Assembly (NCBI GenBank): GCA_043811375.1
Contig: JBDRNJ010000070.1
Span: forward strand, 1 to 23,954
DNA length: 23,954 bases
DNA from: a bacterium
GTDB lineage: Bacteria; Zixibacteria; MSB-5A5; GN15; FEB-12
Direction of reading: 5' to 3'
The notes under the pieces were generated by a model that worked only from the letters and a program-made list of their open reading frames with translations, did not search any database and was not told the origin of the DNA. Below, piece by piece: positions 459-17,368 of the stretch (the first letter of the stretch is position 1; every line of letters begins with the position of its first letter). A program made the position numbers and the translations under genes.

Positions 459-529
459 GGTCCTGTAGCTCAGTTGGTTAGAGCGCCTGACTGTGGATCA
501 GGAGGTCGGCAGTTCAACTCTGCCCCCCA
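459..529 (+). pseudogene. tRNA-His(GTG)-like gene with intact D, anticodon and T arms but a broken acceptor stem
   Basis: D arm TAGCTCAGTTGGTTAGAGC; anticodon arm CCTGA-CTGTGGA-TCAGG (486-502); T arm GGCAG-TTCAACT-CTGCC (508-524); then CCCCA (525-529). The 5' strand GGTCCTG has no 3' partner. Confidence 0.85.
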
Positions 530-2185
530 GTATTCTCTTAAGTGCAAACTATTCTTCGGCGCAGCCGCCCCGATAAGACCCCCAATATCGGCCTCAGATC
601 TAACTCTCAAATACTTGTTACCGTCAATGACTTCTGGGGAAAGAGTAAATTCTCCCAGGAGCGAAGTCAGCTTGGCTTTGGCAACCAGGGGATCAGCTTC
701 AAAGAGTTCGCTCATTCGGCCAAGCCAGCCACGGACCCAATGGCTTTCAACCTTCAGCCTATTGTAGCTGAGCTTGCTGTTAAGCGCGGTATGCTGCCGG
801 TCAATCTCGGCCCGACGGGCTTCAACCTCTGAAAGACGCTTCTTGAGATCATCGGACCTGAAACCGTTAGCTATTGCGTCGATGATATTAGACGCTTGGC
901 GGTCCAGCTTCTCCTTCTCGACCAATAGGGCTGGGGAACTCTTGCGCAGGACCCTCAGCTTCTGGCGCAGTGTCTTGTTAATAAGCTTCACAATACTCGA
1001 TAATGTTGAGGGATTCAGCAATTGTAGCTGGATGTCTCCAAGAATCTTTTTCTCAATCTCACGTCGACCAACCTTGAATATGTTTGGGCACGCCACCTTT
1101 CCGCGGTGGTGATTTGTACCGCAAGCGTACAACGGGTTCGGTCTGTCTGTTCCAGTCACGACAATGTAACTGCCACCACATATTTGACACTTTATCAGAC
1201 CGGAGAACAGGAATCGTGACCGGAAACGACTCTTCTTTAGTGAACCTCGCTTGTTTTTGAGGGTCCTTCGCTGGACTTTGTCCCAGGTAGCTTTGTCAAT
1301 GATGGCTAAGGCAGGTTGCGGATTTTCAACCCACTCACCGCGATCCTTGACGATTCGCTTTCTTTGACCGGTCTCAGGATTCGTCACCCAGCCGGTCTTG
1401 TTGAACGTCCAATCTCCTGCGTACTTGGGATTTCTGAGGATATTGCGTACTGTACCCGGTATCCAACCTGGTATCGCTTTACCCAACGAAGTTAGTCGAC
1501 GTCTGCCGGGGGGAGCATGTCCTTTCTCGTTAAGGTGATGCGTTATATCCCGGATACCAAGACCTTCGTTGAAAAGCTGGAATATCTCACGAACGACATT
1601 TGCTTGGTCGGAATCTATTTCAATGCGGGTTCCGACAACCCTGGGACGACCAGTCTTACGATCGGTAGTACCTGTGTCGTCCTCCACCATAACGTATTGA
1701 TAGCCATACAATCTACCACAGGTGTTAAATCCTCTGAGCGCCTGACCGGCCATGCCTCGGAGCGTCTTCGATGCAAGGTCGCGCCTATACTGGCTATCCA
1801 GCAAGCTATTCACGCCAACGGACAAGTGGGCTTGCTTATCTGCACTGTTGATACCCTGGGACACAAAGTAAATGTGTATGTCGTAGAAACGAAGTCGCTC
1901 AATAATACTCTCCACCTCTCCTGGTTTCCGTGAGAGACGACTTGTGTCATCAACAAGCAGGTAATCAAATGAATGGGGTAATGTCTGAGCGACACGAAGC
2001 AAGTCCGACAATCCAGTTCTACCAATGGCTGAAGCACCCGAAACCGCCCTGTCAGTGTATTTGTGACCGTCCAGTACAACCCAACCCTTCTGCTCTGCGA
2101 ATCGGCTACAGTTTCGTATCTGATCGTCTATTGACCTGTCCCGTTGAAGGTCACTGGAGTATCTGGCATATATGGCGCAGCGCAT
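470..2185 (-). CDS. Large serine recombinase/integrase (resolvase + recombinase + Zn-ribbon + coiled coil), 571 aa
   Basis: MRCAIYARYSSDLQ (catalytic Ser), DDTSRLSR, ILRNPKYAG, LFSGLIKCQICG..YAC..C. Start moved to ATG 2185 because of the RBS AGGAGG/AGGTGA and the upstream promoter. Confidence 0.95.
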   Translation of the reverse strand: MRCAIYARYSSDLQRDRSIDDQIRNCSRFAEQKGWVVLDGHKYTDRAVSGASAIGRTGLSDLLRVAQTLPHSFDYLLVDDTSRLSRKPGEVESIIERLRFYDIHIYFVSQGINSADKQAHLSVGVNSLLDSQYRRDLASKTLRGMAGQALRGFNTCGRLYGYQYVMVEDDTGTTDRKTGRPRVVGTRIEIDSDQANVVREIFQLFNEGLGIRDITHHLNEKGHAPPGRRRLTSLGKAIPGWIPGTVRNILRNPKYAGDWTFNKTGWVTNPETGQRKRIVKDRGEWVENPQPALAIIDKATWDKVQRRTLKNKRGSLKKSRFRSRFLFSGLIKCQICGGSYIVVTGTDRPNPLYACGTNHHRGKVACPNIFKVGRREIEKKILGDIQLQLLNPSTLSSIVKLINKTLRQKLRVLRKSSPALLVEKEKLDRQASNIIDAIANGFRSDDLKKRLSEVEARRAEIDRQHTALNSKLSYNRLKVESHWVRGWLGRMSELFEADPLVAKAKLTSLLGEFTLSPEVIDGNKYLRVRSEADIGGLIGAAAPKNSLHLREYWGAELNCRPPDPQSGALTN

Positions 2186-2212
2186 TGTATCACCTACCTC
2201 CTGCCTCTGTGC

Positions 2213-2241
2213 AGAGTAACCAGAACTGGCTGAATTGTCAA
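2213..2241 (-). promoter_or_regulatory. sigma70 promoter of the left recombinase
   Basis: Minus strand TTGACA(2241-2236)-17 bp-TACTCT(2218-2213), 27 nt upstream of ATG 2185. Confidence 0.7.
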
Positions 2242-2250
2242 TATCCATGG

Positions 2251-2372
2251 CCCACACACTGCATAAAACACCCGAAAGGCACGAAACCCACCAATCACAC
2301 AGTTTCCGGGTTCAGCAAACTCTGTTGGGACTCAACAGCTTTGTGCGTTTCGTGTGAATCGTGTGTTTGTTT
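2251..2372. repeat. Convergent arrays of degenerate 9-bp repeats (consensus CNCACGAAA) around a small hairpin; candidate replication origin
   Basis: Plus strand: CACCCGAAA, GGCACGAAA, CCCACCAAT, CACACAGTT (2269-2304). Minus strand: CACACGATT, CACACGAAA, CGCACAAAG (~2339-2365). Central CTGTTG-GGACT-CAACAG (2322-2338). Confidence 0.55.
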
Positions 2373-3932
2373 CAGGCCGTAGGCGCTCCTTAGCTGCTTG
2401 ATTTGGTCTTCGTCCCACACCATGCCCATGTTGTTGCCTGTCCTGGCCTTCTTGAAACCCATCGCCGATAGCCTTCGGCCGATCCCTTGGTAAGTGACCT
2501 GGTTCCTTTCTGTTTTCCCCTCATTGAGTGAGTCAGTAATATCCTTGATTGCCAATTTGCCCTTGTCCACCCGGCCCCTAATGGTCTCAAGGACCACGAG
2601 AATCCTGGCTTCGAGACTATCGGCTTTCTCGTTCAGCCTTTCTTGCTCCAAGTCCCGGACGAGTTCGAGAAAGCTCTCCTCTCGCTCGGGACTGACGGCT
2701 CTAATGATCTGCTGGAGCGGTTTCAGAATGTCCCCGAGTCTACCAAAAGCAGGTTTGGCAATATCCGGAAAGGGCTCCCCGAGGTATCTCGCTCGGAAGG
2801 CCAGGAGCTTTTCTTTCAAAGGAAGGGCGATTTCAGGTGTAATGTCGTTTTCAAAGCGTTTGGTGGTCTGCGGCATGTTCATCTGGACCGCCCTCGATTC
2901 CAGTATCTTGTGAACCCCTTCGTTAGTACCGATGATTGTCGGGCCGAAAATGTCGTAGTACACAGTGTCACAGAAAGGGCCTTTTTCGGGGTAGAGGACT
3001 CTGGGGACTTTGGCTCCCTTCTCGTAGCGCAGGAGTAGAATATCGTCGCTTCCAGCTTTTTCAGCTCGGCGCCAAACGTTTCTGACGTCTATGAACAGAC
3101 TTGCACAGAAGTTATTGGCCACCCTGACCATGTAAGCATCCCGCAGAGACTCCACGTAGATGCCACGGTAGGATATATAGATGGCACCCTTTCCGGTTCG
3201 GCTTTTGCCCCGTTCGGGCACAGCAAAAAGACATATAACAGGAGAATACTGACATTGCTCCAAGCAGTATGTATGGAGAATCCAGGCAGCCAGTAGATCA
3301 TAGTGCCCATCGGCTGGAAGCTGGGAGTTCTGTTTGAGATAGGAAACAACCTCTCCAAATGTCGCCCAATCCGCCTCACCCGGCCGCATCTGGCTCTCAG
3401 CATTGAAAATCTCTACCACCTTCTTTCCATTAGGCAGCTTCCAAGGAATCTGTCTGGCCGGCGGTGGATGATGGGTCGTGCCATCGATATCAAAAGAAGT
3501 CTGTATTTCGAGCCGATCATCATCCTTCACTAGAAACGCCGTTTTGCCATCATGCTCTACGACGTCAACCAGGCCCTCGAACCTGGCCGTATAGGCTGGC
3601 CGCTTCTGACTGGTCTGCTCATCACCCTTGCCGCTCGTTCGCTTAATGAAGTCTTTCCGGTGCCGGTTCAGATCAGCGCGAAAGGATTTGAGTTCTGACA
3701 CAGTCAGGCTAAAGTGCTCCTTGACGGTGTGACAGAGCACCGCCTCTGCGTACGAGACGTCGAGGTCCGCCAGTCCTTGCATGATCGGCTTGAGCGCTGT
3801 AGCTCGTTCGACCGGCGAGAGATCGGGATTGATCGCCAATATCTTCTGCGCAAATGGATCGGCGGATTCAACCTCATTCATCTGGTGATCCAGGCCGAAC
3901 TCAGCTTTGGCGGCTTGCTCTGGTATTTCCAT
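2295..3932 (-). CDS. DUF3631-like primase-associated replication protein with degenerate P-loop, 545 aa
   Basis: LLAAWILHTY..PVICLFAVPERGKSR (Walker A-like), FGPTIIG, ILESRAV, GRLGDILKPL and a C-terminal wHTH-like segment (IGRRLSAMGFK). This pattern is typical of replication proteins in integrative elements. Confidence 0.7.
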   Translation of the reverse strand: MEIPEQAAKAEFGLDHQMNEVESADPFAQKILAINPDLSPVERATALKPIMQGLADLDVSYAEAVLCHTVKEHFSLTVSELKSFRADLNRHRKDFIKRTSGKGDEQTSQKRPAYTARFEGLVDVVEHDGKTAFLVKDDDRLEIQTSFDIDGTTHHPPPARQIPWKLPNGKKVVEIFNAESQMRPGEADWATFGEVVSYLKQNSQLPADGHYDLLAAWILHTYCLEQCQYSPVICLFAVPERGKSRTGKGAIYISYRGIYVESLRDAYMVRVANNFCASLFIDVRNVWRRAEKAGSDDILLLRYEKGAKVPRVLYPEKGPFCDTVYYDIFGPTIIGTNEGVHKILESRAVQMNMPQTTKRFENDITPEIALPLKEKLLAFRARYLGEPFPDIAKPAFGRLGDILKPLQQIIRAVSPEREESFLELVRDLEQERLNEKADSLEARILVVLETIRGRVDKGKLAIKDITDSLNEGKTERNQVTYQGIGRRLSAMGFKKARTGNNMGMVWDEDQIKQLRSAYGLKQTHDSHETHKAVESQQSLLNPETV

Positions 3933-4497
3933 GACCGGTTATTCTTTTCCTCATTGCATTTCGTTCCCACGTTGCTTCTATTACTTGCGAATCCATTTCC
4001 TCAAGTTCGTACAGAACGACTTCTTCCCTGGGATAGAAGTCCTCCATTGACATCCTGGTACGCGTCATGCTCCGCCGAATGATGCGGAGATATGTGTCAA
4101 GTCCCGCGCGGATGGTTTTCAGCCTTTCCTGACGGTTCTTAGCGGCCAGGTACTCTTCGTTCGACAGCAGTGGGTTGATTCGACTCATTGGCCGTGGGCG
4201 AAAGGATTCCTGCGGCGAATTGGGCTGATTATCATCAAACGGCAGACCGGCCATTGAGCACAGGTGACGAAGGGCTTCCCTGCGCTGGCAATGGTGCAGA
4301 TACTGAACCAGGTCGATCAGTCCGCCGCTGACCCCGCAGGAGAAGCAGCAGAATGTCGAATCCTCAAAAGAGAACGAAGTCCGGTTGCTGCTGTCGTGAA
4401 TGGGGCAAGGCATACGGTTCCTGACAGGCTTGTGTCCATGCGCTGCCAAAACGTCCCGGATTGTAACTCGGGCCAGAATCTGGTCAAAGTCGACCAT
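3901..4497 (-). CDS. CHC2 zinc-finger (DnaG-type zinc-binding domain) protein without TOPRIM domain, ~198 aa
   Basis: CPIHDSSNRTSF..FCCFSCGVSGGLIDLVQYL..REALRHL. RBS AGGAGA before ATG 4497. The C-terminal half is helical/coiled coil. Confidence 0.85.
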   Translation of the reverse strand: MVDFDQILARVTIRDVLAAHGHKPVRNRMPCPIHDSSNRTSFSFEDSTFCCFSCGVSGGLIDLVQYLHHCQRREALRHLCSMAGLPFDDNQPNSPQESFRPRPMSRINPLLSNEEYLAAKNRQERLKTIRAGLDTYLRIIRRSMTRTRMSMEDFYPREEVVLYELEEMDSQVIEATWERNAMRKRITGHGNTRASRQS

Positions 4498-4747
4498 TGT
4501 TTCTCCTGGCCTCGTGGGCGACACCCTTCAGCGAGTTGATGACCTCAGAGAACCGCAGCGCTGAAACCTGCCCTGACCCGGTAAAGAATGCTGATATATC
4601 TTCGTCGCTCGGGTGTTTTGACAGGATGAAGGTCACCTGCCGTGAACCAGGAGTAGGCTCAGTGCCAGCCAGTTCAGCCCTGCCGGTCGCGATAAGATAG
4701 CTGGCAAACGTCAGCTTCTCGGTTTTGTACTGGGACGTTGTTGTCAT
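4484..4747 (-). CDS. DUF5659-like small mobile-element protein, 87 aa
   Basis: YKTEKLTFASYLIATG..L.G......VTFIL....FFTG...VSALRF....LK pattern. RBS GGAG. Confidence 0.7.
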   Translation of the reverse strand: MTTTSQYKTEKLTFASYLIATGRAELAGTEPTPGSRQVTFILSKHPSDEDISAFFTGSGQVSALRFSEVINSLKGVAHEARRNNGRL

Positions 4748-4892
4748 TCTTTGCTCCGATCATCTGAGATTTTATTTCCTGGAGTTTCTTTTCAACGACA
4801 AGTTCGGCTACCAGATCGATGAGAGGGCTGAGCTCTTTAGACAGAGAAGGCTGCGGCGGTGCCGATCGTTCTACTGACTGTTCTTGTGTCAT
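4674..4892 (-). CDS. Small hypothetical protein with amphipathic helix (first gene after repeat array A)
   Basis: GAGG just before ATG 4892. Helix LSPLIDLVAELVVEKKLQEIK. Overlaps the start of the DUF5659-like gene. Confidence 0.5.
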   Translation of the reverse strand: MTQEQSVERSAPPQPSLSKELSPLIDLVAELVVEKKLQEIKSQMIGAKNDNNVPVQNREADVCQLSYRDRQG

Positions 4893-4962
4893 GCCTCAAC
4901 ATGACCACACAGCAGAGGTTGTCAAACAATCTGATTGGACGGATGCAGATTTCGACACATTT

Positions 4963-5013
4963 ATGTCGAACAGATGTCGAACAGACGTCGAACGTCGAAC
5001 GGACGTCGAACGG
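4963..5013. repeat. Tandem direct-repeat array A (GTCGAAC x5, mainly 11-bp period)
   Basis: ATGTCGAACAG ATGTCGAACAG ACGTCGAAC GTCGAACGG ACGTCGAACGG. Heptamers start at 4965, 4976, 4987, 4994 and 5005. One inverted partial copy TTCGAC at 4951-4956. Confidence 0.9.
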
Positions 5014-5040
5014 GAGTGTCCCCGGGTAAGAAAAACGCTG

Positions 5041-6540
5041 TTAAGTTGTTCTGGATTTAGACAGATTTATCTTTAGGCTATATAGTCCCCAGCCCTCATT
5101 GCGCAGCAACGGTTGAATGGGCGTCTTCTTGAATAAGTCGTAAACTCTATAGGTTTTCTTTGCACCTGCTTTGCTCACAATTCTGTGACTCTCAACCGGC
5201 TTGTCTGAGTTTTTGAGTTCTGTCAGCAAAAAGTACAGAGCGTCGAACCTCCTGTACTTTCCTTCGGTGAGAGTCACTTTCTTGCCGTCTATCCAAACCT
5301 CTCTGGTCATCTTGTTGAGCTCCAGAGCCGGCTTCGGCGACTTTCCTGAAACACTACCTTTGATGTTTATTACTGACTTCTCAGTAAGAACCGTACTCCC
5401 CGATCCCGCTCTAAGCACTTGAATGGCGCGCTGCTGAAACACATTGAGGTACTCATCCAGTCCCTGCTTGCTCATTTCCCACGCAAAGAATAATCGATCA
5501 AACCACTCAGGCGAGCCGCTACTGTAATCTCGGTAAAAGTCCTTGAGGTCAAATTCGATGCCGACCCTTGGGTCTTCAGCTTTCCAAGGGCGAAGCCGGA
5601 TTCTAAGGTCAGTAATGGAACGTAGCGCCATTTCACCCGTCACGCGGCCTATTACTGTCAGCAGATCCGTCAATCCACCAGGTCGCAGGAATTTCTCTGT
5701 ATTTCGGTGACTCGGTAGATGATCGCTGTCGTAGAAGAGTCCGTACTTCTCGTCTACAGTTAACAAGAAATGTGTATCGTCACTTCTCAGCACGGTCTTA
5801 GACTTCTCAAGACACACTTGGGCAACAGTCAATGCTGCCTCCTGCCCGATTCCACGTGGTGTTGCCACTTGCACTTGCGACAGAAGACGTTTTACCACTT
5901 CACATTTGAATGCATAGACCTCCTTCCGAAGTACAGGACTATCCAGTCGGTCGGTCTCTTCCGGTTTGAGAAACTTCAGGTAATCTGCATCTGGATATTC
6001 GCATATGGTCCCATCGGCAACCCGTTCTTGACCCGTACTGCGTAGCCAGAATACTCCATCCTTTCCTTGGTGTCTCTTCCTCACGAAATAAAGGCAACCC
6101 AACTGACAATCCAACCAGGGGGACACATCGAAGTCCATCTCTGGGTAACCGGTTTGTAGGAGAGACTCCTTGTTAGTTCTTTGGAATTCCAAGAATTGTT
6201 CCAGCGCTATTGACCAGTCACCAATACTATAGAAGCAGTTGTAAGGATCGGCCAACTGGCTTGCGAAACGCTGACGATTGCTGAAATCCTCCAAATTCTG
6301 GGTCTCAAATAGGTTTAGAGCTTGTTCAAGATTCTGTGAAAGACACTTGAAGGCTTCATCAAAGTCAGGGTCGGCAGATTTGATGGTGCCTTCTTTGTGA
6401 TTGATGCCCTTAAGTGTGTTTCCAAGTATTTGCACAACTCGCACATGATCAGGCGAATCTTTAGGTGCGTAGTCCAACGCTATCGACTCGATGAAGGCGT
6501 GCCTAGATGCAAATTTCGATCTGGTTTTGCTTGTGTGCAA
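5041..6540 (-). CDS. Hypothetical protein with C-terminal OmpR/PhoB-like winged-helix DNA-binding domain, ~499 aa
   Basis: C-terminus LELNKMTREVWIDGKKVTLT..FDALYFLL..PVESHRI...LLRNEGWGLYSL resembles Trans_reg_C (beta scaffold, helices, wing). The N-terminal ~400 aa are unrecognised. TTG start is uncertain. Confidence 0.65.
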   Translation of the reverse strand: MHTSKTRSKFASRHAFIESIALDYAPKDSPDHVRVVQILGNTLKGINHKEGTIKSADPDFDEAFKCLSQNLEQALNLFETQNLEDFSNRQRFASQLADPYNCFYSIGDWSIALEQFLEFQRTNKESLLQTGYPEMDFDVSPWLDCQLGCLYFVRKRHQGKDGVFWLRSTGQERVADGTICEYPDADYLKFLKPEETDRLDSPVLRKEVYAFKCEVVKRLLSQVQVATPRGIGQEAALTVAQVCLEKSKTVLRSDDTHFLLTVDEKYGLFYDSDHLPSHRNTEKFLRPGGLTDLLTVIGRVTGEMALRSITDLRIRLRPWKAEDPRVGIEFDLKDFYRDYSSGSPEWFDRLFFAWEMSKQGLDEYLNVFQQRAIQVLRAGSGSTVLTEKSVINIKGSVSGKSPKPALELNKMTREVWIDGKKVTLTEGKYRRFDALYFLLTELKNSDKPVESHRIVSKAGAKKTYRVYDLFKKTPIQPLLRNEGWGLYSLKINLSKSRTT

Positions 6541-6632
6541 CGAGCTTCAATCTTTGATTCACTTCAGTTTCCGTTATTTCATTGGCAAACATAAGACACT
6601 AATTCGATGAAGTGCATCAAAAAAAGATGACG

Positions 6633-6671
6633 CAGTGTCCCAGAAACGCTCCCTTTCTGGGCAGAACACTG
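6633..6671. repeat. Inverted repeat in the divergent gap between the two elements
   Basis: CAGTGT-CCCAGAAA(6633-6646)..TTTCTGGG(6654-6661)-CAGA-ACACTG(6666-6671). Confidence 0.5.
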
Positions 6672-6742
6672 TATCAAACTCCTTGGATGTTTGATCAGGC
6701 ACAGCGCATATTGGGATAAACACTGAAATGGTCTAAAGTGAA

Positions 6743-9226
6743 ATGAAGAAAAACAGGGATCGCCCCAGTAGCACTCTACCGAAAGACAAGCTGAAACGTT
6801 ATCTACGGCATTGCCTTCTCACCTACGGTCGTAACAGGATGCAGAAGCCCGTCACTCTACTGGAAAAGTGGCTTATTGAGAAACCCGATGATGCGATTAC
6901 GATAATCTGTTCAGAGCGCGAGCCTCATGAGCTTCTGGGCAAGCTCTTGGACTCAATTGACGTTCCGTACAAGACTCTGGACTCAACAACACAACTGCCG
7001 AACACCACAAAGTACCGACTTGAGATTCCCCCGCTTCACGATCGGCTTGAGGATTTGCCTCTCATTACTGAGTCAACGCTGAGAACTCACATCGAAAACC
7101 ATGAAGTCGAAGCTACCAAACTGCCATTACTCTACCTTGCAGCCTTCTTCTTCCTGTGCTGGAAGTACGAATCGCCGCTGAAACTGACAACGCCCATTCT
7201 CACTTATGACAAACTCGTTTCGTACCTACAGGGCTTCTTAGATTCCGGGCGGCATCTTGATCCTCCGTTCAAACTGGCTTTGCTTGACTTCAATGATGAG
7301 GGGGAGAGCAAAAGAAATCAGGCACTTCAACCGTTCACCGCACTCCATGATGAAATCGTTACAGTGCTACTGAGTGATGTGCCCGAGGAGGATGCTGGGT
7401 TCTGTGTTCATGAGGACAATGAGCTTCAAGCATCACTGATTGCACCGGAGACGGATCGGGAAACTGGGGGGTCAATCAATGAGCACAGAATGCACTTGTG
7501 GGCCGCTGTGTCAGGAGAATTTCGGCACATCATCATGGATAAGCATACCGGACTTAGCAAGAGACAACTCTCCAGAAAAATCCAGTTGGATGACATTCAA
7601 CGACAAATGATCAGGGTTGGAAGTAAGTTCGCTCCCACAACTGAGAACATCAAGATCGAGCCTATCCCGCAGATTCACTTAAAGCGTAGAGACTCATACA
7701 AAGCGTTAGTGAGATTCATTAGAATCCAAGCTCTTAGAGAACAACTCTCCAGATACCTGTTAGTCGAGTCCCATTCTCCGGCTGGTCACGAACTTGTTGA
7801 AAGAGTAATAAGCGAATACGACCTCCGCGACCAGGACCGAACAGTTTTTCTCAAGGGTGATCGATTCTTCTCTGATATGATCCAGCCCCTTCTTAAAAGC
7901 TGGGGTATCACGGTTTGCCACGAAGGGGACGAGACTCGTCCGGACTACCGAACCTTGTACGTTCCAGGGCCAAGCGAGAGAAAGGAAGACATTCCATCTG
8001 TTGTGTCGTACGTCGTTCAAGACTTTGCAGCGAAGTTCAGAGAACGTGGCATAGAGATACCTAAGTATATATGTGGTGAGACCCTACTGCTCCTGTTGAC
8101 CGACTCCCTCTGGACTGGTTTCGATCACCTGCGAGATTTTCTTTACTACTTTATGAGAGCTAACTGGGATGCCAGTAACAACACAGTCCTTCTTGGACAA
8201 GCAGTCACATTGGGGCGAGATACCTTTGAAGGCAAAAGTCACCTCCAAACGCTGGATGAACAACACCTGACATCGGATAACCTGAAGGACTTTTTCCCTG
8301 GATTTTATGAGACCGAAAGAGAAAAAACACTATGGGGGATCGTTGATCACTTCATGGAAGGTCCGCAACCCAAACACATCTTTTACCTTCCGACCTTGGT
8401 GCGTGAGTATGTCTATGCCTCCTGGGATATGCCGGGGACTATGTTACATCCGTTTCCGCTGGAGGCAGTCAGACAAGCAATGCACAACATACGTGTATTG
8501 TCCGATGAGCACCCGAACAGTCAGAATCTTGACAAGAACAAGATAGCAGATATCAACGAAATCATTTCCATCCGCTTGAAACAAGTGTGGCCTGACCTGA
8601 AAGCAAAACGAGAAGAAGAAGAAGATCAGTCCACCACTGTATGGCCGAATTGGAACGTTGATACCGAAATCAGTGATGTGGCGGCTGCTGGACTTTGTGA
8701 CCAGGTTGATTATGAGAATTTCATGGCAGACCTTTGTTTCAACCTGAGTTTTCCCGATGCTGACACTGTATACGACGAGTGGGATGAGATACGACAAGCT
8801 TTCGGTCTTCCCACACGTGAAACAGGTGGTTCAGCCGCGGTTGGTACACGACCTAAGTTCTTGATCCACCAGGATGATGAGTCAGTGGTCTCCGATGGCA
8901 TCAAGTACTGTCTACCCCAGGATCGATATCTGGCAGTCTTCTTTATTGCAGAACAACACAAGAAGGGCAACCCGTGGGTCCGAAAGAAGGCCATCTACGA
9001 CTATTGCCGAGTCTTCGATGATGAGGATCGCGAGTCGGCACAGACACCTTCCGTGAGAGAGTGGTTCATTGATGCGGAAGGTGACGCTGCACGGCTGGCG
9101 CAGAAGGGATTGATAGAGACGAACCCAAGTCACAACGGAACCTGTAGAATCCCGGTCGACCCAGAACTCATAGAGTTTATCCCTCACACTGGCGAGGATT
9201 CCGAGGATAGCGTACCAGAGGGCTAA
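6743..9226 (+). CDS. Large hypothetical regulator: two degenerate sigma54-activator (bEBP) AAA+-like segments plus a putative C-terminal winged helix, 827 aa
   Basis: LEIPPLHDRLEDLPLI (~aa 93-108) and LYVPGPSERKEDIPSVV..FAAKF..ICGETLLLL...W (~aa 405-457) match the NtrC-family PPLRERxEDIPxL/lid motif. No GAFTGA and no intact Walker A. Confidence 0.6.
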   Translation: MKKNRDRPSSTLPKDKLKRYLRHCLLTYGRNRMQKPVTLLEKWLIEKPDDAITIICSEREPHELLGKLLDSIDVPYKTLDSTTQLPNTTKYRLEIPPLHDRLEDLPLITESTLRTHIENHEVEATKLPLLYLAAFFFLCWKYESPLKLTTPILTYDKLVSYLQGFLDSGRHLDPPFKLALLDFNDEGESKRNQALQPFTALHDEIVTVLLSDVPEEDAGFCVHEDNELQASLIAPETDRETGGSINEHRMHLWAAVSGEFRHIIMDKHTGLSKRQLSRKIQLDDIQRQMIRVGSKFAPTTENIKIEPIPQIHLKRRDSYKALVRFIRIQALREQLSRYLLVESHSPAGHELVERVISEYDLRDQDRTVFLKGDRFFSDMIQPLLKSWGITVCHEGDETRPDYRTLYVPGPSERKEDIPSVVSYVVQDFAAKFRERGIEIPKYICGETLLLLLTDSLWTGFDHLRDFLYYFMRANWDASNNTVLLGQAVTLGRDTFEGKSHLQTLDEQHLTSDNLKDFFPGFYETEREKTLWGIVDHFMEGPQPKHIFYLPTLVREYVYASWDMPGTMLHPFPLEAVRQAMHNIRVLSDEHPNSQNLDKNKIADINEIISIRLKQVWPDLKAKREEEEDQSTTVWPNWNVDTEISDVAAAGLCDQVDYENFMADLCFNLSFPDADTVYDEWDEIRQAFGLPTRETGGSAAVGTRPKFLIHQDDESVVSDGIKYCLPQDRYLAVFFIAEQHKKGNPWVRKKAIYDYCRVFDDEDRESAQTPSVREWFIDAEGDAARLAQKGLIETNPSHNGTCRIPVDPELIEFIPHTGEDSEDSVPEG

Positions 9227-9326
9227 TCGGGCTCCCAGAAGGCCAAGAACTGACATCGTGTACGCTACAGACGGAGTCATTTTCACCTGATTACAGTAAA
9301 AAGTCAGAATATCCACGGTTTTTTTT

Positions 9327-9367
9327 GGATACCCCCCCGGATACCCCCCCGGGTGACACCCCCCCCC
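9327..9367. repeat. Tandem direct-repeat array B (GGATACCCCCCC x2 + GACACCCCCCCCC)
   Basis: 12-bp units at 9327-9338 and 9339-9350, variant at 9355-9367, preceded by a T8 run. Confidence 0.85.
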
Positions 9368-9376
9368 ATAGCCTTA

Positions 9377-9500
9377 GATTACCTGAGCGAAGAGCCGGAT
9401 GCCGTTGTTGACCCGGCCTAAGCTCAGATAGGAATCACCCTCGTGGGTGTTAACCGACCCCCTGACTCCATAGCCGGGTCAACATTCAGGGGGTCGCTTT
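9377..9500 (+). ncRNA. Candidate structured leader RNA/attenuator upstream of the primase operon
   Basis: Three stems: CTGAGC/GCTCAG with inner GCCGG/CCGGC (9383-9427); CACCC-TCGT-GGGTG (9436-9449); perfect 11-bp CGACCCCCTGA/TCAGGGGGTCG (9455-9496) followed by CTTT. There is also a 12-nt long-range complementarity between 9406-9417 and 9473-9484. Confidence 0.5.
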
Positions 9501-9518
9501 GTGCGGAGTACCGCTGCC

Positions 9519-9656
9519 GTGAGTTGCGAAAGTGACTGGTCATTCGAGATCATCAGCGTGACGGAGCGAGCCAATCCTGATCTCGATCTTGAAGTATGGT
9601 TGGCGGACCTATTAATAGCGCTGTGGCGCCTACAGAGCGGAGCAGGGGGTGATTAA
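9519..9656 (+). CDS. Small hypothetical protein, 45 aa, translationally coupled to the primase gene
   Basis: GGAG at 9505-9508, GTG at 9519, MSCESDWSFEIISVTERANPDLDLEVWLADLLIALWRLQSGAGGD*. The stop overlaps the next start (TAATG). Below the ORF-track cut-off. Confidence 0.55.
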   Translation: MSCESDWSFEIISVTERANPDLDLEVWLADLLIALWRLQSGAGGD

Positions 9657-11209
9657 TGGTTCTCTCACTCTGGTGGACAGGCTGCGCTGCCAGGATAACT
9701 GAAAGGCGTCTATCAAGACGGAAACGTCTGATCCGATTGGGGATATCTGAGAGTGATTTTGAAGTGTACACTGGTCTGTTTCTGGCCTGCCGAAGACCAG
9801 ATGTCTACTCTGAGCGAAAACACGATGGGTCTTGGCCGTTACAGTCTCACCGGTGGAATAACTCTTTGATATTGCGACACTTGTGTGGCGAGACCGATGT
9901 CGCCATTCCCTTTGGCTGGATCGTAGATCAGGTAGTACTGGACATTGATTTCGAAGGAAACAGAGCTTGGGGAGACGTGGAATCCACTACGAGAGGGGCG
10001 ATTCGGGCAATACCTGGTGAGCCGCTGGTTTATCAGAGTTCTGACTCAGGTGGGTTGCGCCTGATCTGGTTTTTGAGCACCAAGATGAAGCGCACTCACT
10101 TGTACCGGTGGGTGAAATCGAGGTTGCGCGACCAGGGAGTGACTGTACAGAACGGCGTTTGTGAAATCCGACTTGGTACATCTCCAGACCGACTGCCCTT
10201 TGGGTACTTCAGTATGCTGGTTGACCCAATTCTGCTGGAACCTCATTACCACGTGAGCTTGGCTGAGACTCTGAAGATCGTGCGTGAACACCGGGAGTGG
10301 CACGCCATAGACATCGAATCGGACTCCGCCGATGACTTCTGCTCGTCGCGTTCATCGGGAAGCGATTTCACACGGGACATGGAGACATTGCTATCGAATG
10401 GACTCCCGTGGGATGTGACCACCAACGATTGCCTCATGAAGCTGGCTTGGTTCGGTCGAGTCAGAAAGAGACTGCAAGAGGAGCAACTGAAAGCATTTCT
10501 CCGAGACTGGATTTGCCAGAAACACAACGGATTCTCAACACGTGTGAACGAAGGGAGAATCCAGGACATCTACGACCAGATAGACCGCATAGTGCATAGC
10601 CTTCATGCTGTCCCCGGGCCGCTTGCTTACCAGGCTAATGCTGTCGGACTGGGTGAAACCGAGATGAGATGTCTACTTCAGTATCCCGGGAACTTCAAAA
10701 CCATTGAAGGAGCTTTTAAGATTCTATGCTACGCCAAGTCCAAGCTCCATCGAATCAAGTCCAGAAGTAGTACTATATGTACAGGGGGAGGGGATGGTAC
10801 CAACAAATGGGGCACGGTTTTTCACCCCGCGGAAGGCATACCAAATGGGGCACGGAATTTCCCACTTTTCGTGAATCTTGGCAAACAGCATCTGCGGCGT
10901 CTCCGGGTGCCTTTTGCCTCAAATACCGCCCGGATTGTCGGAGAACTGGAACGACTTGGAACCCTCGCTCTTAAGAGAAAGGCCTGGCCCGATGGCGACA
11001 AATCCAGGCAATACTGGGTCAATTTCCCGTTTGACCTCGCGGATGCCCATCTGTATGACGATTTTGACGAAGCACTGTGGCGTATTGTTGGCTGGGTTGG
11101 GATAAAGAAGCGCTTTTCTGCCTACCAGGCAAAGAGGATAGGTTCTAAAATGAGAAATGACTCACTCGAAACAGGAGTTTCTGAGGATGAACTGCCGAAA
11201 TCAAAATAA
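9656..11209 (+). CDS. Archaeo-eukaryotic primase (AEP) superfamily primase-polymerase/replication protein, 517 aa
   Basis: Motif I VVLDID, motif II-like QSSDSGGLRLIW, NGVCEI..RLPFG..LVDP, a PriCT-like helical region (TNDCLMKLAWFG..LRDWI) and a C-terminal wHTH-like segment (IVGELERLGTL..SRQYWV). Confidence 0.7.
   Translation: MVLSLWWTGCAARITERRLSRRKRLIRLGISESDFEVYTGLFLACRRPDVYSERKHDGSWPLQSHRWNNSLILRHLCGETDVAIPFGWIVDQVVLDIDFEGNRAWGDVESTTRGAIRAIPGEPLVYQSSDSGGLRLIWFLSTKMKRTHLYRWVKSRLRDQGVTVQNGVCEIRLGTSPDRLPFGYFSMLVDPILLEPHYHVSLAETLKIVREHREWHAIDIESDSADDFCSSRSSGSDFTRDMETLLSNGLPWDVTTNDCLMKLAWFGRVRKRLQEEQLKAFLRDWICQKHNGFSTRVNEGRIQDIYDQIDRIVHSLHAVPGPLAYQANAVGLGETEMRCLLQYPGNFKTIEGAFKILCYAKSKLHRIKSRSSTICTGGGDGTNKWGTVFHPAEGIPNGARNFPLFVNLGKQHLRRLRVPFASNTARIVGELERLGTLALKRKAWPDGDKSRQYWVNFPFDLADAHLYDDFDEALWRIVGWVGIKKRFSAYQAKRIGSKMRNDSLETGVSEDELPKSK
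10804..10855. repeat. 14-bp direct repeat inside the primase gene
   Basis: CAAATGGGGCACGG at 10804-10817 and 10842-10855. Confidence 0.8.
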
Positions 11210-11214
11210 AAGGG

Positions 11215-11252
11215 TTGACAAAGCTATATACCACGGATGTATTAGTACTACA
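11215..11252 (+). promoter_or_regulatory. Probable promoter/operator of the RHH-recombinase operon
   Basis: TTGACA at 11215-11220. An imperfect palindrome TGTATTAGTACTACA (11238-11252) covers the expected -10 region. The -10 hexamer itself is not clear. Confidence 0.45.
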
Positions 11253-11282
11253 GTTATGAACTCATCTGTTAAGAGGTCTACA

Positions 11283-11462
11283 ATGAAAGCAAAGATAGCA
11301 AAAGCACACTTAGGAAGGCAGATTCACATTCGCTTATCGGATGACACACACAAGCGAATTAGAATCCGCGCAGCTGAGTTGGATACTACGATTCAGCATT
11401 GGGTTGTCTCAGTGGTTGAACGTGCCCTAAAGGGACCGAAGAAGGTGCGTGCCGGCTCATGA
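11283..11462 (+). CDS. Arc/HicB-like ribbon-helix-helix DNA-binding protein, 59 aa
   Basis: RQIHIRLSDDTHKRIRIRAAELDTTIQHWVVSVVERAL. RBS AAGAGG. ATGA overlap with the recombinase start. Confidence 0.75.
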   Translation: MKAKIAKAHLGRQIHIRLSDDTHKRIRIRAAELDTTIQHWVVSVVERALKGPKKVRAGS

Positions 11463-13180
11463 ACGAGAAAGTAGCAGCCTACTTCAGATGTAGCACGGAC
11501 AAGCAGAGTAATTCCATTGCTGACCAACGCAAGACGCTGCTGGAGTATGCCAAAGACAATGGAATGACCATCACAACCTGGTATGATAAGGACGAAGGGA
11601 TATCCGGAACCAGCTTTGAGAAACGACCTGACTTCATGAGGATGGTAAGCGATGTGGAATCTGGGAGGAACGACTTCGATAAGATACTGGTGTACGATGT
11701 GGATCGCTGGGGAAGGCCCCTGGACCCGGATGAATCAATCTACTGGGAATTTCACTTCAAAAGGTTTAGTGTTCAAGTGACCTATATCTCCGATGAATCA
11801 CTCAACGATGATTCAATCGGTGGCCGTCTGAGCAAGAAAATCAAACAGGAGTTAGCCACCGAGGAGAGCCACAAACAATCACTTCGCGTGCACGAACGAT
11901 CAAAGATGCGGGCGGCCGAGGGCTTTCGGGTTGGGGGCTTTGCTCCGTATGGCTACAAGAGGATGCTCGTTGAGTCCAACGGAACACCGATTCGTGTACT
12001 GGAACACGGTGAGCGTAAGTATGACAAACACCATCGTGTTGTTCTCACGGTGGGTGACCCTGAAGAGGTGCGTACGGTTAACAGGATATTTGAATTGAGG
12101 GACCACGGAAGAGGATCGAGGTCCATTGCGAATTTGCTCAACAGGGAAAGTGTTCCTTCGCCCAGTGCTGTAAGACCATATTCCAATAACAAGCCCGGAA
12201 AGTGGTCAGCAGGCACAGTGTCAGCGATTCTGTCAAGCCGCGTCTATGTAGGCCAGCTGACATACAATCGGCAAGTAAGGGGTAGTTGGGCCAGGAAGGA
12301 GAGACCTGGCATGGCACAACGTCCAGAGGAGAGTTGGGTGATCTGTACAGATGCCCATGAAGCCATTGTACCTCGGGAGCTATTCGATCGTGTTCAGACG
12401 ATTCAACAGGGGAGAAGTAATCGCGGTCCATCCGGTCGAGGTCATAGTTCACGTTACCTCCTTTCCGGCCTTATGGTATGCAAACATTGTGGGTATAATT
12501 ACCACGGTCACCAGCGGACCAACAGTTGTGGTCGTCATTACCGGTATTACGAGGATAGTGGGTTCAGCCTTCATGGAGCAAGCGTATGCAAGTATTCCTC
12601 AGTGCCAGCGGATGTTATCGAAGACTTTATCGTTAAGAGGCTGGACCGGGACCTGGCCAAGTTGATCGATCCAGTGCGCCTTCGGCAACTCATAGGGTCA
12701 AGACTTGCCGGCATCGATCCTGGCTCTGGCGTGGAACTCGATGCTAACCGGAGCCAACTGGCGGACATCAAGGGAAGACTCGACAATCTTACGAACGCCC
12801 TCGAAAAAGGCGTCAGATATGATCGTGTTCTGACACGCATGGATGCACTTGAGAAGGAGAAGCTGCAGGTGGAGTCAGAACTCAGGCGAAAGGAAAGCTC
12901 ATCTGCGAAGGGTTTTGACACCGACCGAGCAGTCGATGAGATAGTCGGCATGGCGGGAGAGGCATTTCAGACTGTGAGATCGCGCTCGCCACAAGAGGCG
13001 AAGTGTGTCCTGAGACTCTTCGTTGATCGGGTAGAGATCGATCCCTTAAGGAAGAAGGCGACGTTCTTCGTCTACAAAATCCCAAGAACATCACAGACTT
13101 ACGAGAGATTCGTGCCGGTTAGTAAATGCCGGAGGTCGGACTCGAACCGACACGGTCTGAAACAGACCAAGGGATTTTAA
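11459..13180 (+). CDS. Large serine recombinase/integrase, 573 aa
   Basis: VAAYFRCSTDKQ (catalytic Ser), YDVDRWGR, GGFAPYGYKR, YVGQLTYNR, HEAIVPRELFDRVQ, LLSGLMVCKHCG, coiled coil, FVDRVEI. Confidence 0.95.
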   Translation: MNEKVAAYFRCSTDKQSNSIADQRKTLLEYAKDNGMTITTWYDKDEGISGTSFEKRPDFMRMVSDVESGRNDFDKILVYDVDRWGRPLDPDESIYWEFHFKRFSVQVTYISDESLNDDSIGGRLSKKIKQELATEESHKQSLRVHERSKMRAAEGFRVGGFAPYGYKRMLVESNGTPIRVLEHGERKYDKHHRVVLTVGDPEEVRTVNRIFELRDHGRGSRSIANLLNRESVPSPSAVRPYSNNKPGKWSAGTVSAILSSRVYVGQLTYNRQVRGSWARKERPGMAQRPEESWVICTDAHEAIVPRELFDRVQTIQQGRSNRGPSGRGHSSRYLLSGLMVCKHCGYNYHGHQRTNSCGRHYRYYEDSGFSLHGASVCKYSSVPADVIEDFIVKRLDRDLAKLIDPVRLRQLIGSRLAGIDPGSGVELDANRSQLADIKGRLDNLTNALEKGVRYDRVLTRMDALEKEKLQVESELRRKESSSAKGFDTDRAVDEIVGMAGEAFQTVRSRSPQEAKCVLRLFVDRVEIDPLRKKATFFVYKIPRTSQTYERFVPVSKCRRSDSNRHGLKQTKGF

Positions 13181-13213
13181 GTCCCTGGTGTCTACCAATT
13201 CCACCACTCCGGC
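13127..13213 (-). tRNA. tRNA-Leu (anticodon TAA), CCA not encoded
   Basis: GCCGGAG/CTCCGGC acceptor stem + A73; D loop GGAATTGGTAGAC; AGGGA-CTTAAAA-TCCCT; long variable arm GGTCTG-TTT-CAGACC; T arm GTCGG-TTCGAGT-CCGAC. Confidence 0.97.
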
Positions 13214-13270: not shown

Positions 13271-13410
13271 GAAACTTATTGTCTGCCTGATTCAGGCGAA
13301 TGCGAGAAGGAATTAGAAACCCACTGCAAGCGGATGGGCCACCGGGCCCATGTGTTGACATTCGGGTGAATCAAGGAAGTGCGATTCCCTATGTGCCTAT
13401 CACCAATTGA

Positions 13411-15054
13411 TTATGGATCTTGGAGGATGATCTTCTGTGCCTCTACAGTGCGCTGTTTTATCGTTTTCCTGTCCCAATCCTCATAGCTCAAGACTTGAAT
13501 ACTCCGTGGGTAATCACTGACTCTGTCCTTCAAGTATTTTTCCTTCTTCTTGTCAAAGTCGAAATTCCTGGCAGAAGAATTCTTGCTCTTGCTAAGCAAG
13601 ACAAGATTCCCGATAGTGTTTACGTACTTGTCGATTTTGGTCAAATCATGGTTGTCTGCCCAGTATCCTTCCGCTTCCGGGTTTCGCGGGAGAACGTGTT
13701 CTACTGACTTGGCATCGAATTCGTGGAGTGCATCGTGTTCCGCAGTAACAAGCTCAAGTCTTAGCAAAAAGTATTTACCGAAGCCCACCGAATAGAGATC
13801 GTTGACAACTGCTGCCTGCATGATCGCATCCGAGTCATAGCTGAGGCCTCCGAGCACATCATCAGGCTTCTTGGCTGACTCGATTAGCGCAAGGATCTTT
13901 GAATAATCTGCGTAACGCTCGTCCTTCCGCATCGCCTTGACCCATTGAGCCAGAAACACTTTCTCCATACCCAAGCAGAATTCATAAAAGCTCTTGCTTC
14001 CAAATCGCGATGCGAAGTAGAGTAGGCACGCCCGCCACTCGGAGGCCTTGAATTCCGCATTCATAATGTGAATAAGTGAGCGATACCGATTGTGCTCCGG
14101 CGCTTCTGTCGGAATAATGTCCCTCTCTATAAAAATCGCTGTGTAAAGCTTGGAATACTCGAACACAAGGTCGAAGAACGGTCCACCTTTGCTAACGGTC
14201 TTCTTTAGGAAAATCCGATTTTCGAACTCTTTTAAGAGATCTCCCTGTGGTTTGTCTTTAAGCAGAATCAGCCGAATCAAGTGGAAGATGCTTTCGAAAG
14301 TAGACTCTCCCAACCCCTTTTCCAAGTCTTCCCACTCTTGCGCCACTCTATTCCGAACCGTGTCGCTAGCAATTACATCTGGGGCGATGTTTAAGGCCTT
14401 AAGAACATCGATACGCCTTAGTTGCTTGCCTCTATCGTTGACGATTGTGAAGAGCCGGAATGCGTCATCGAAGGTTTCGGTTGCCAAGCAGATCACAACG
14501 CACTTCTGGCTCAAAAATGTGATGAGCTCTTGAATCTCCTTTTCTGATAGCTTGGCGAGCTTTGACCGAAAGACATTAACGGCGTTGACGTAGCGCCACT
14601 CCGGTTCCGGCAACTCGCTTTTCTTCAGAGACTTGGTGGTACCGCCTTCTTCGACGACTATCTCACCAAACAACTTACGGTCCTTCACTTCAAGGCGGAC
14701 CTTTTCTGGGATTCCGTCAACAACGTTTTTCCGTTGGAGTATCTTGTCCTGAAGACCCTTTTTGAAGTTATCGTCCTTCACGAAGTCTCGGAGACATGCA
14801 AAGAGGATTAGTAGAGATGTGAGTCGTTGTTGCCCGTCTACTACGTCATTGTGTCCACGTTCTTTGCGGTAGTGAAGAACCATTGTGCCAAGGAAGTATT
14901 CTTGCCCCCTCGTGGCGGTAATCACGTCATCAATCAGATCGTCGAAATGGTCTGTTTTCCACGAGAACGGCCGCTGATATTCCGGCACATGAAAAAAGAA
15001 ATCCTGGGACAGTAGTGTCCCTATAGCTATCGTCCTTCCGTCTAGGTTTTTCAT
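13411..15054 (-). CDS. DUF262 + DUF1524 protein (GmrSD-like type IV modification-dependent restriction endonuclease)
   Basis: VPEYQRPFSW, YFLGTMV, VVDGQQRLT and FTIVNDRGKQL (DUF262); SVEHVLP..IGNLVLLSKSKNS (His-Me finger, DUF1524). Start 15054 fits GGAGA RBS spacing. Confidence 0.9.
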   Translation of the reverse strand: MKNLDGRTIAIGTLLSQDFFFHVPEYQRPFSWKTDHFDDLIDDVITATRGQEYFLGTMVLHYRKERGHNDVVDGQQRLTSLLILFACLRDFVKDDNFKKGLQDKILQRKNVVDGIPEKVRLEVKDRKLFGEIVVEEGGTTKSLKKSELPEPEWRYVNAVNVFRSKLAKLSEKEIQELITFLSQKCVVICLATETFDDAFRLFTIVNDRGKQLRRIDVLKALNIAPDVIASDTVRNRVAQEWEDLEKGLGESTFESIFHLIRLILLKDKPQGDLLKEFENRIFLKKTVSKGGPFFDLVFEYSKLYTAIFIERDIIPTEAPEHNRYRSLIHIMNAEFKASEWRACLLYFASRFGSKSFYEFCLGMEKVFLAQWVKAMRKDERYADYSKILALIESAKKPDDVLGGLSYDSDAIMQAAVVNDLYSVGFGKYFLLRLELVTAEHDALHEFDAKSVEHVLPRNPEAEGYWADNHDLTKIDKYVNTIGNLVLLSKSKNSSARNFDFDKKKEKYLKDRVSDYPRSIQVLSYEDWDRKTIKQRTVEAQKIILQDP

Positions 15055-15198
15055 AATCCACATATCTCCAATACAAGAGTAAGCTCAGTACTACTGACAC
15101 GGCAAGGCCCGTGTGGAATCGCTTCAGCCAACATGCAACAACTTCCCGTCCAAATCAACAATAATCCATCCAACATGGAAAGGGTACCGGGCGACTGG

Positions 15199-17019: not shown

Positions 17020-17368
17020 ACCGTCATAATGGTTGGCCAGGACAGTAATGTCAAACAAATATACTGCCTGAAGCCTAAGATTACGAAGACGACCGAAATT
17101 TGATTGGGAGTTTTCACTGAGGGAAAGTGACCCGTTAACCTGAAAAAGACAGGGAAGGCTCCCGTATCTGAGATAGTCTCAATATCAGCACCGCGGACGT
17201 TTCCTCTGTGTAAGCGTGTAAATCGCTGCTCCAGCGGCACATATACCCTTGTTGCAATGACTCCCGACAGGTTTCCCCACAATGATCGGTACTCTCCAAC
17301 CCGAACGTATCGACCTTCACCACGTCTACGCTGTTTCTTTCAGTCCGCCCACCAGGTGGGGGAGAGGG

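Follow-up and report, generated by a model that had tools for sequence, protein, structure and literature searches.

Small integrase-plus-primase islands without transfer genes are common, and the trigger that wakes them up is mostly unknown. Tycheposons combine a tRNA-targeting integrase (mostly a tyrosine, in some cases a large serine recombinase, LSR) with a small replication module and cargo or the terminase small subunit gene terS; they stack behind partial tRNA copies and are associated with inversions (bioRxiv 10.1101/2020.12.28.424599). In the staphylococcal cassette chromosome (SCC), the LSR lies downstream of a swappable primase/helicase operon for which two unrelated replication patterns are described, together with cargo and no transfer genes (PMC7581432), while in the ssrA islands of Dehalococcoides the 3′ end of the gene for the CcrB-like integrase DsiB is described as always overlapping the left attachment (att) site, attL, with the stop codon coming from outside the island, and as stacking in tandem (PMC3146451). 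Phage-inducible chromosomal island (PICI)-like satellites and virion-encapsidated integrative mobile elements (VEIMEs) are described as integrase, primase and regulator (bioRxiv 10.1101/2022.07.26.501625). As for switches, in the FseA-rdfS system of ICEMlSym R7A the element-encoded FseA, a tested activator of the excision promoter, binds repeats just upstream of the promoter that starts mobilisation (PMC10359603), and P4 gates its replication genes by premature termination (CI attenuation, PMC4825925). Here, a contig of a bacterium from the Zixibacteria (GenBank assembly GCA_043811375.1, contig JBDRNJ010000070.1, positions 1 to 23,954 of the forward strand) is described, on which two islands of this general kind, called arm A and arm B, stand back to back.

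The window, i.e., the whole stretch of 23,954 nt, is an entire contig (C70) of a genome assembly of 3.56 Mb in 92 contigs; in the following, C denotes contigs of this source genome (G000), G other genomes, L loci, and P homologous proteins. With somewhat better than even confidence, we read it as the cores of two separate tRNA-targeting islands joined by one inversion, each with a winged-helix protein predicted to bind 11–12-bp repeats and to turn on a replication operon. The two arms diverge outward from a gap of about 200 bp (6541–6742); arm A runs leftward in the order 499-aa protein, repeats, 72-aa protein, 87-aa protein, CHC2 zinc finger, 545-aa protein, TTGACA and LSR, and arm B rightward in the order 827-aa protein, repeats, structured leader, 51-aa protein, 517-aa protein, TTGACA, ribbon-helix-helix (RHH) protein and LSR. 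The mirror image proposed in an earlier note on this DNA is, therefore, present in the sequence, starting from this gap. That note had assigned each arm one small open reading frame (ORF) and a promoter directly before the LSR; small helical ORFs are indeed conserved in relatives, but arm A has two small ORFs and arm B adds the RHH gene between promoter and LSR. It had also held that the arms are not copies of each other, which is true of the LSRs (28% identity over 377 aa; both look intact, with Resolvase, Recombinase and Zn-ribbon domains) but has to be qualified for the large proteins, which are linked via domain swapping. Conjugation, capsid and terminase genes, none of which the note had seen, gave zero family matches among the window ORFs in Pfam, PHROGs and NCBIfam; there were no relaxase or mating-pair genes among the ORFs scanned, the window holding the far cargo of the islands only incompletely, and no terS or capsid gene in Pfam or PHROGs, the distal parts of both arms lying outside the window.

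Both large proteins had been suspected to end in a winged helix-turn-helix domain, and three agreeing lines identify it as an OmpR-type winged helix: residues 397–494 of the 499-aa protein align to Trans_reg_C proteins in the Atlas structure rows; all seven weak PDB sequence matches are response-regulator domains; and with residues 372–470 of a model of the homologue P0148 (pLDDT 79.5), OmpR/PhoB DNA-binding domains fill the top 20 VIA rows (Z 6.8–8.6), while the body of this model has no clear structural match. The 499- and 827-aa proteins share no direct BLAST similarity (best E 0.68), and a word-indexed search with the former returned only itself. They are connected by chimeric homologues, P0148 consisting of a 499-aa-type body (40%) and an 827-aa-type tail (51%), and P0139 of an 827-aa-type body (36%) and a 499-aa-type tail (50%); judged from these alignments, winged-helix domains have been swapped between the two families. 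Homologues of the 827-aa protein cover residues 13–326 or 329–822 separately (full HMMER search, 58 matches). Its bodies match true bacterial enhancer-binding proteins weakly over the lid region (profile, E about 1e-6); by motif search Walker A, the GAFTGA loop and Walker B are absent from them, just the lid-side motif being kept.

The tandem repeats noted earlier behind both large genes (4950–5011 and 9327–9367) each score 20/24 at lag 11–12, above all 200 shuffles. Behind related winged-helix genes, 9 of 18 loci, counting both window arms among the positives, reach at least 15/24 at lag 11–12 (peak lag 12), versus 2.9% of 520 control regions, and in many loci a −10-like hexamer follows the last repeat by about 10–14 nt (by eye). 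The arrays are predicted to be binding sites of the neighboring winged-helix protein. PhoB binds pho boxes in place of a −35 box; in the switch proposed here, the variable N-terminal body would receive a signal (a helper phage or a partner protein, as a guess), the winged helix would bind the direct repeats in place of the −35 box, and the small ORFs and replication genes would then be transcribed. In arm B, whether transcription reads on into the small ORF and the primase gene would be controlled by a kissing-loop leader. The integrase would be expressed separately from a sigma-70-type promoter, in arm B probably limited by the RHH protein, and would excise the island with a small ORF as directionality factor. 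Regarding this promoter, the TTGACA hexamers claimed before each integrase unit are present and kept in relatives, but a strict promoter scan of the window, which finds fewer sites than shuffles (8 vs 13.4), lists neither. The DNA carrying the hexamer of arm A is 91% identical, up to the start codon, in a sibling island on C69, yet the LSRs are only 36% identical; the order promoter, RHH, LSR is kept in L023, L124 and L127.

A role of the winged-helix proteins as sensors and activators is what we infer, and the presence of an extracytoplasmic function (ECF) sigma factor or of weak FseA-like domains among the genes filling the same slot at loci of the 545-aa family was counted in its favor. OmpR-type domains can also repress, and repeats beside a replication gene are often iterons; it is conceivable, if on balance unlikely, that the large proteins are repressors or anti-phage cargo and the repeats replication iterons. 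In size and variability their bodies resemble those of defence proteins. On the other side, PADLOC has no match for them, sigma factors also occupy the slot, the repeats stand in front of the −10-like hexamer in many loci, and a separate repeat, conserved at the DNA level, lies within the primase gene.

The leader of arm B (z −2.16; compensatory changes in L128) belongs to a pattern rather than to a sequence family: a leader with a loop complement of at least 11 bp is found in 6 of 27 loci, in unrelated sequences, versus 0 of 300 controls, four of the six having been noticed before the scan and L425 and L427 being new. The genome as a whole has 3 such sites, that of arm B included. There is no Rfam match for the leader, and arm A is without it. 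Besides the window's own, a hairpin pattern search (108 genome and 4 viral stretches) showed no loop complement above 8 nt, and its matches, which look like unrelated terminators, were rejected as relatives of the leader.

Two profile searches of 285 genomes of the phylum led to 21 followed loci in 20 other genomes, seven weak winged-helix matches (E 5e-5 to 1e-3) being excluded. An integrase lies at most 5 kb from the related gene in 15 of the 21 (10 tyrosine, 5 serine; the one in L266 is a small serine recombinase of 251 aa, and in L429 position defined the anchor gene), versus 66 of 1498 genes (4.4%) of the source genome; two of the remaining six have an integrase at 7–8 kb and four have none, three of these on contigs under 9 kb. 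A tRNA is found within 8 kb in 11 of the 21 loci, and a near-full order in L124/L128, L127, L267, L268, L278 and L427. The gene order thus recurs elsewhere, as a single-arm layout; together with the winged-helix folds, this means that neither ground on which the note would have dropped its interpretation is borne out. The proposed class of minimal, satellite-like LSR replicons stands insofar as small integrative islands with a dedicated winged-helix gene followed by repeats recur, but most integrase-linked loci carry a tyrosine integrase, and bounded relatives, at about 13–26 kb with cargo, are not minimal. The replication slot varies freely among these loci, and in the arm-B relative L124/L128 the large gene is directly preceded by terS (phrog_309, E 1e-44). 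Tentatively, and with more doubt than conviction, one may go further and see phylum-wide satellite-like islands with a plug-and-play switch, in which a winged helix with exchangeable bodies (including dead sigma54-activator AAA+ bodies), 11–12-bp repeats replacing the −35 box, a sequence-free three-hairpin kissing-loop attenuator and interchangeable primase and integrase modules are combined, and two of which can fuse, inverting the chromosome between two tRNAs.

The earlier note had called the replication genes zf-CHC2/DUF3631-like in arm A and archaeo-eukaryotic primase (AEP) in arm B; the CHC2 zinc finger and the AEP hold up, but DUF3631 was found in 0 of 30 sequences (the 545-aa protein and 29 relatives, E 0.05). 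The 545-aa protein has no naming match in Pfam, PHROG or PDB; most of its 494 homologues are about 860 aa long and carry CHC2/TOPRIM, Prim-Pol or DUF3854 being present in some. An ERGKxRTG motif is invariant in the family, and the protein may act as a helicase or initiator. The CHC2 and 545-aa genes of arm A correspond to the flanks of the usual CHC2-TOPRIM fusion with the primase core missing; arm A would, therefore, need a host or helper primase. The 517-aa protein of arm B has the AEP catalytic fold by structure comparison (VIA: Z 17.8, root-mean-square deviation 2.9, 183 aligned). AEP motifs are DxD (I), sxH (II) and an acidic residue (III); in this family D96/D98 and E170 are invariant, and motif II has Arg135 instead of His in 10 of 10 sequences. 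Within the internal repeat region of its gene, identical residues use the same codon at 52 of 58 positions versus 320 of 862 elsewhere, a conservation as DNA that is expected for an origin. Plasmid and phage collections held one weak AEP match and none for the 545-aa protein; viral contigs held no AEP relative and two distant relatives of the 545-aa protein. As to the small proteins, the WLADLL-type helix of the arm B ORF is conserved in L124/L128, L127 and L268, and the 87-aa protein of arm A is also found in L070, L072, L090, L266, L267 and L424.

Where the islands begin and end can be traced best for arm A. The elements had been thought to be bracketed by two convergent tRNAs, each LSR ending inside an antisense tRNA. 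Both LSR genes do end in opposite-strand tRNA-derived sequence and the tRNA-Leu(TAA) on the right is intact, but on the left there is only a tRNA fragment: 465–534 lacks the first six bases of the intact tRNA-His on C8, matches only positions 7–64 of the Rfam model and receives no tRNA call from ARAGORN. On C8, genes for a tyrosine integrase and a PriCT protein come after the intact tRNA-His, and the starts of C8 and of the window are the left and right ends of one insertion sequence (IS); a join of C8 to the window is compatible with this but unproven. On the simplest reading, a third element, this one with a tyrosine integrase, would reside at the C8 tRNA-His and have its distal att site (attR) at 465–534; it would have entered after A and pushed A behind the duplicated site.

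The reading frame of LSR A runs through its own att site, and its four relatives at 41–62% identity are all at tRNA-His. A complete arm-A-like island in the same genome, the C69 sibling (L037, G000:C69:22007-35635), provided the rule for the att scan: it sits at tRNA-Glu and has both att sites, the second of them 13.6 kb away and marked by a 17-bp repeat that has inverted arms; the 545-aa genes of this island and of arm A share 88% identity. Beyond its attR, DNA resembling the end of an older related integrase gene was noted. The core of arm A occurs exactly twice in 3.56 Mb, at window 524–536 and at C63:11740, where the inverse of the 11-bp arm adjoins it with symmetric spacing; with 11/12, the arm score at C63:11740 is the top of 1853 stubs and equals that of the positive control at C69. 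After in-silico excision with the C63 site, the frame of LSR A stays open for a tail of 24 aa, the end of which resembles the tail in a bounded His island of G099; joined to a G072 site, the tail has only 3 residues. Immediately inward of the C63 site, the DNA matches the distal end of the C69 sibling at 74–84% identity; the site neighbors a MATE gene, and ABC genes lie inside the C63 end. By these matches, attR of arm A sits on C63, and the idea that both elements are bounded by the window has to be given up. Within the window itself, approximate matching to tRNA 3′ stubs and to inverted arms revealed none; position 6763, with an exact 8-nt stub and a 13/22 arm, was rejected because it is at background level and has no arm like that of the G072 and C63 sites.

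Relatives of LSR B (47–53% identity) are likewise at tRNA-Leu, in L124, L268, L339 and L437. Near 13100–13126 LSR B crosses tRNA-Leu in a different frame from the L124 relative, i.e., there are two tail frames in the family.

In the preferred history, A would have entered tRNA-His and B tRNA-Leu(TAA), both on one strand, in the order His, A, MATE, accreted DNA, Leu, B. An inversion whose breakpoints lay immediately upstream of each large gene would then have turned the B core against the A core. A MATE gene followed by tRNA-Leu(TAA) on the same strand is seen in 5 of 29 family relatives within a 1.5-kb flank, and in G078 MATE is followed by a tRNA-Leu 5′ half, a cassette, tRNA-Leu and then a remnant that shares 53% identity with LSR B. 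Both lexA and tRNA-Leu(TAA) exist in one copy only, which makes the right third of the window host DNA. At the junction itself, the block shared with the C69 sibling corresponds, at 77% identity, to sequence ahead of that island's large gene, and stub and arm searches found no att site; the palindrome, which could be an operator or a recombination site, is also present in the C69 sibling, there behind a resolvase gene. That the junction is an assembly chimera is extremely improbable: this is a metagenome assembly in many contigs, but the contig ends overlap by 141 bp and the closest genomic repeat of the junction is just 77% identical over 106 bp.

The same end state would be reached by purely site-specific steps if A and B had fused first, the circle had entered one tRNA and the second recombinase had joined the intact attP to the other tRNA, inverting the DNA between. 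Serine integrases carry out attP x attB recombination without a directionality factor, and no IS is found at the junction, both of which agree with such a two-integrase cointegrate; but none of the other 21 activator loci has a complete head-to-head core pair (L423 has just a partial divergent pair), and we consider this history distinctly unlikely, although a single genome does not distinguish it from an inversion. The mirror image is probably a one-off rearrangement of one genome. Less likely still is a nested capture, in which the att sites of A are direct and enclose B, tRNA-Leu, lexA and other host DNA, with B inside a swollen A: the orientation of C63 is free, and bounded His islands of relatives do hold foreign modules, including tRNA-Ser and a second integrase in G099, but excision would delete the sole tRNA-Leu(TAA) and lexA, an extra block move is needed, and the repeats at the right end of the window differ from those at the ends of C63. 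Finally, three genomes from a different family of this order (G027, G033, G036) have tRNA-His and tRNA-Leu in convergent orientation at a distance of 10–15 kb, and convergent neighbors could each have taken up an island before a deletion removed both far ends. This simple abutment is very unlikely. Provided that the C63 site is not what is left of another A-like element, it is largely refuted, since the far end of A persists on C63 and the two tRNAs are at least 70 kb apart in family-level relatives that have both on one contig.

Several points weigh against the inversion of two switch-controlled islands favored here. The second inversion junction was not found, and there is no same-genus genome to show the empty sites; tRNA-His directly precedes MATE in 0 of 29 relatives, tRNA-Tyr being there in 8. 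C63 is not linked to the window contig and, being flanked by inverted IS copies, may lie in either orientation. For arm B, attR was found neither in the own genome nor in the fetched ranges of five relatives (best arm 9/12, many ties). With respect to the switch, a Z of about 8 is a middling fold score and stems from a homologue, P0148, not from the window proteins; the periodicity test counts the window's own arms, and 9 of the 18 loci are without clear periodicity. In the 545-aa family, 0 of 78 loci have the winged-helix activator family within 4 kb while 48 of 78 have an integrase; the modules are, therefore, loosely coupled. The resolvase on C29 was considered as the second inversion junction and rejected for lack of a matching context.

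The earlier suggestion of a composite able to use two tRNA targets fails on the left tRNA, a fragment, and on the other end of arm A, which is on another contig; it survives only as a possible route to the inversion. In their present arrangement, the two arms would not leave the chromosome together as one His-to-Leu circle, and all that LSR A could do is invert or delete the DNA as far as C63. Both cores are cut from their far ends, which makes clean excision unlikely.

Table 1. Features of the two arms and of the sequences that border them
Feature	Position	Strand	Evidence or remark
5′-truncated tRNA-His copy	465..534	+	70/70 bp identical to C8:2993-3062, identity from tRNA position 7
LSR A	470..2182	-	570 aa from ATG at 2182; Pfam PF00239, PF07508, PF13408
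attL of arm A	524..548	+	13-bp core 524-536 plus 11-bp arm 538-548
TTGACA (-35-like) hexamer before LSR A	2236..2241	-	sequence; predicted function
Short repeats at 3′ end of 545-aa gene	about 2270-2375	-	candidate origin
545-aa P-loop protein	2295..3932	-	C-terminal part of CHC2-TOPRIM primase fusions
CHC2 zinc-finger protein	3901..4524	-	PF01807 E 4e-7; phrog_11992; no TOPRIM catalytic core
87-aa conserved small protein	4484..4747	-	71% identical in C69 sibling
Small helical ORF of arm A	4674..4892	-	39% identical in C69; similar ORFs in L070, L072, L322
Six 7-bp direct repeats (GTTCGAC-like)	4950..5011	-	spacings 11, 7, 11, 11, 15; predicted sites of 499-aa protein
499-aa protein	5041..6540	-	body of unnamed fold; C-terminal OmpR-type winged helix
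Arm junction	6541..6747	.	8+7+8-bp palindrome 6639-6661; block 6644-6747 like C69 sibling
827-aa protein	6743..9226	+	two degenerate sigma54-activator-like AAA+ bodies in tandem; C-terminal OmpR-type winged helix
Three 12-bp C-rich direct repeats and -10-like hexamer	9327..9380	+	predicted activator-dependent promoter; same pattern after related genes
Three-hairpin leader	9383..9500	+	9406-9417 complementary to loop of last hairpin (9456-9495)
Small helical ORF of arm B	9501..9656	+	stop overlaps primase start
517-aa AEP replication protein	9656..11209	+	Foldseek CAPP Prim-Pol E 1e-7
Internal repeat pair in 517-aa gene	about 10796-10861	+	candidate origin
TTGACA and RHH gene	TTGACA 11215-11220; RHH likely start 11283, to 11462	+	weak RHH family matches; overlaps LSR B start
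LSR B	11459..13180	+	Pfam domains; reads into tRNA-Leu
Intact tRNA-Leu(TAA)	13127..13213	-	sole copy in assembly; attL of arm B

Outside the arms, the window starts with the end of a multi-copy IS with TGT...ACA termini (1–141), which we take to be IS481-like, followed by a gene for a TacA-like RHH antitoxin (129–371), the toxin partner of which is absent from the contig. On the other side, a short hairpin-bearing sequence (13302–13350) has several 85–95% copies in the own genome and in relatives, and a GmrSD-family gene (13411–15063; Pfam GmrSD_N/C, PADLOC models Orf5 and HEC-06) lies directly upstream of tRNA-Leu. Elsewhere, 5′ halves of tRNA-Leu (about 39 nt) occur in tandem, 1.7–8 kb apart, in most cases ahead of the intact gene and on either side of cassettes, for example of defence genes (G027:C1:2263192-2282820; L032 in G024, L124, L345/L437 in G078, L380/L436 in G129), which suggests accretion on the 5′ side of the tRNA by a recombinase; the GmrSD-family gene is probably a cassette of this type. 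A 619-aa protein (15199–17058) without Pfam or NCBIfam match is found in 43 of 108 family genomes with up to 73% identity. The whole genome has nine Recombinase-domain genes, and contigs C6, C28, C31, C32, C42, C57 and C83 carry further serine- or tyrosine-integrase elements, several at tRNAs; on C83 an ECF sigma factor precedes a frameshifted relative of the 545-aa gene. In G099, L330 (C19, 2352–16120) is a bounded tRNA-His island with an LSR-A relative, tRNA-Ser, a tyrosine integrase, and ClpP-like and tape-measure-like genes (named by eye).

The mirror image matters less than the blueprint, of which the activator-repeat-leader unit is the part worth following: within a few hundred bases it brings together a candidate trigger, the sites that this would bind and a possible RNA gate, all recurring with unrelated sequences in at least 20 genomes, which makes the question of the trigger testable with a simple reporter. 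In addition, the locus yields new serine integrases for tRNA-His and tRNA-Leu, the attP of one of which can be reconstructed, as well as an AEP family whose motif II carries Arg. A literature search, with incomplete coverage of subscription journals, found no description of the layout, and the single arm is apparently undescribed; that an integrase gene overlaps its own att site is already known (PMC3146451).

Compared with the systems described, the islands share with tycheposons the site-specific integrase at a tRNA, the small replication module and, as far as the window goes, the lack of conjugation and capsid genes. However, the tycheposon integrase is described as facing inward, whereas both LSRs here are transcribed toward the tRNA; the tycheposon definition, compared by description, contains no dedicated winged-helix gene with periodic repeats; and cargo is, for arm A, off the window (the ABC genes inside the C63 end). 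As in SCC, the replication operon lies directly upstream of the recombinase, though its genes are not SCC homologues; the target site is another one, CcrA/CcrB and CcrC are absent (best 80 and 135 bits vs a cut-off of 900), and the upstream activator gene found here is not reported in the SCC account cited. The overlap of the integrase 3′ end with attL is shared with the ssrA islands, but the targets here are tRNAs, and the window has no match to DsiA, ParB or Mom, which together with RecF are given as part of the six-gene module of those islands. Unlike the PICI-like satellites as described, the window has no packaging gene, and AlpA is absent. As regards the switches, FseA is described as a DUF6499-DUF2285 protein acting at an inverted repeat in a conjugative element, while an OmpR-type fold and direct repeats are found here, and the arm B leader has a single upstream complement, without Rfam match, instead of the seqA/CI/seqC design reported for P4. 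In their predicted way of working, the islands resemble tycheposons, SCC and PICI-like satellites to which a switch of the FseA type is added; of tycheposons, SCC and the ssrA islands, however, each has a defining feature that is missing here.

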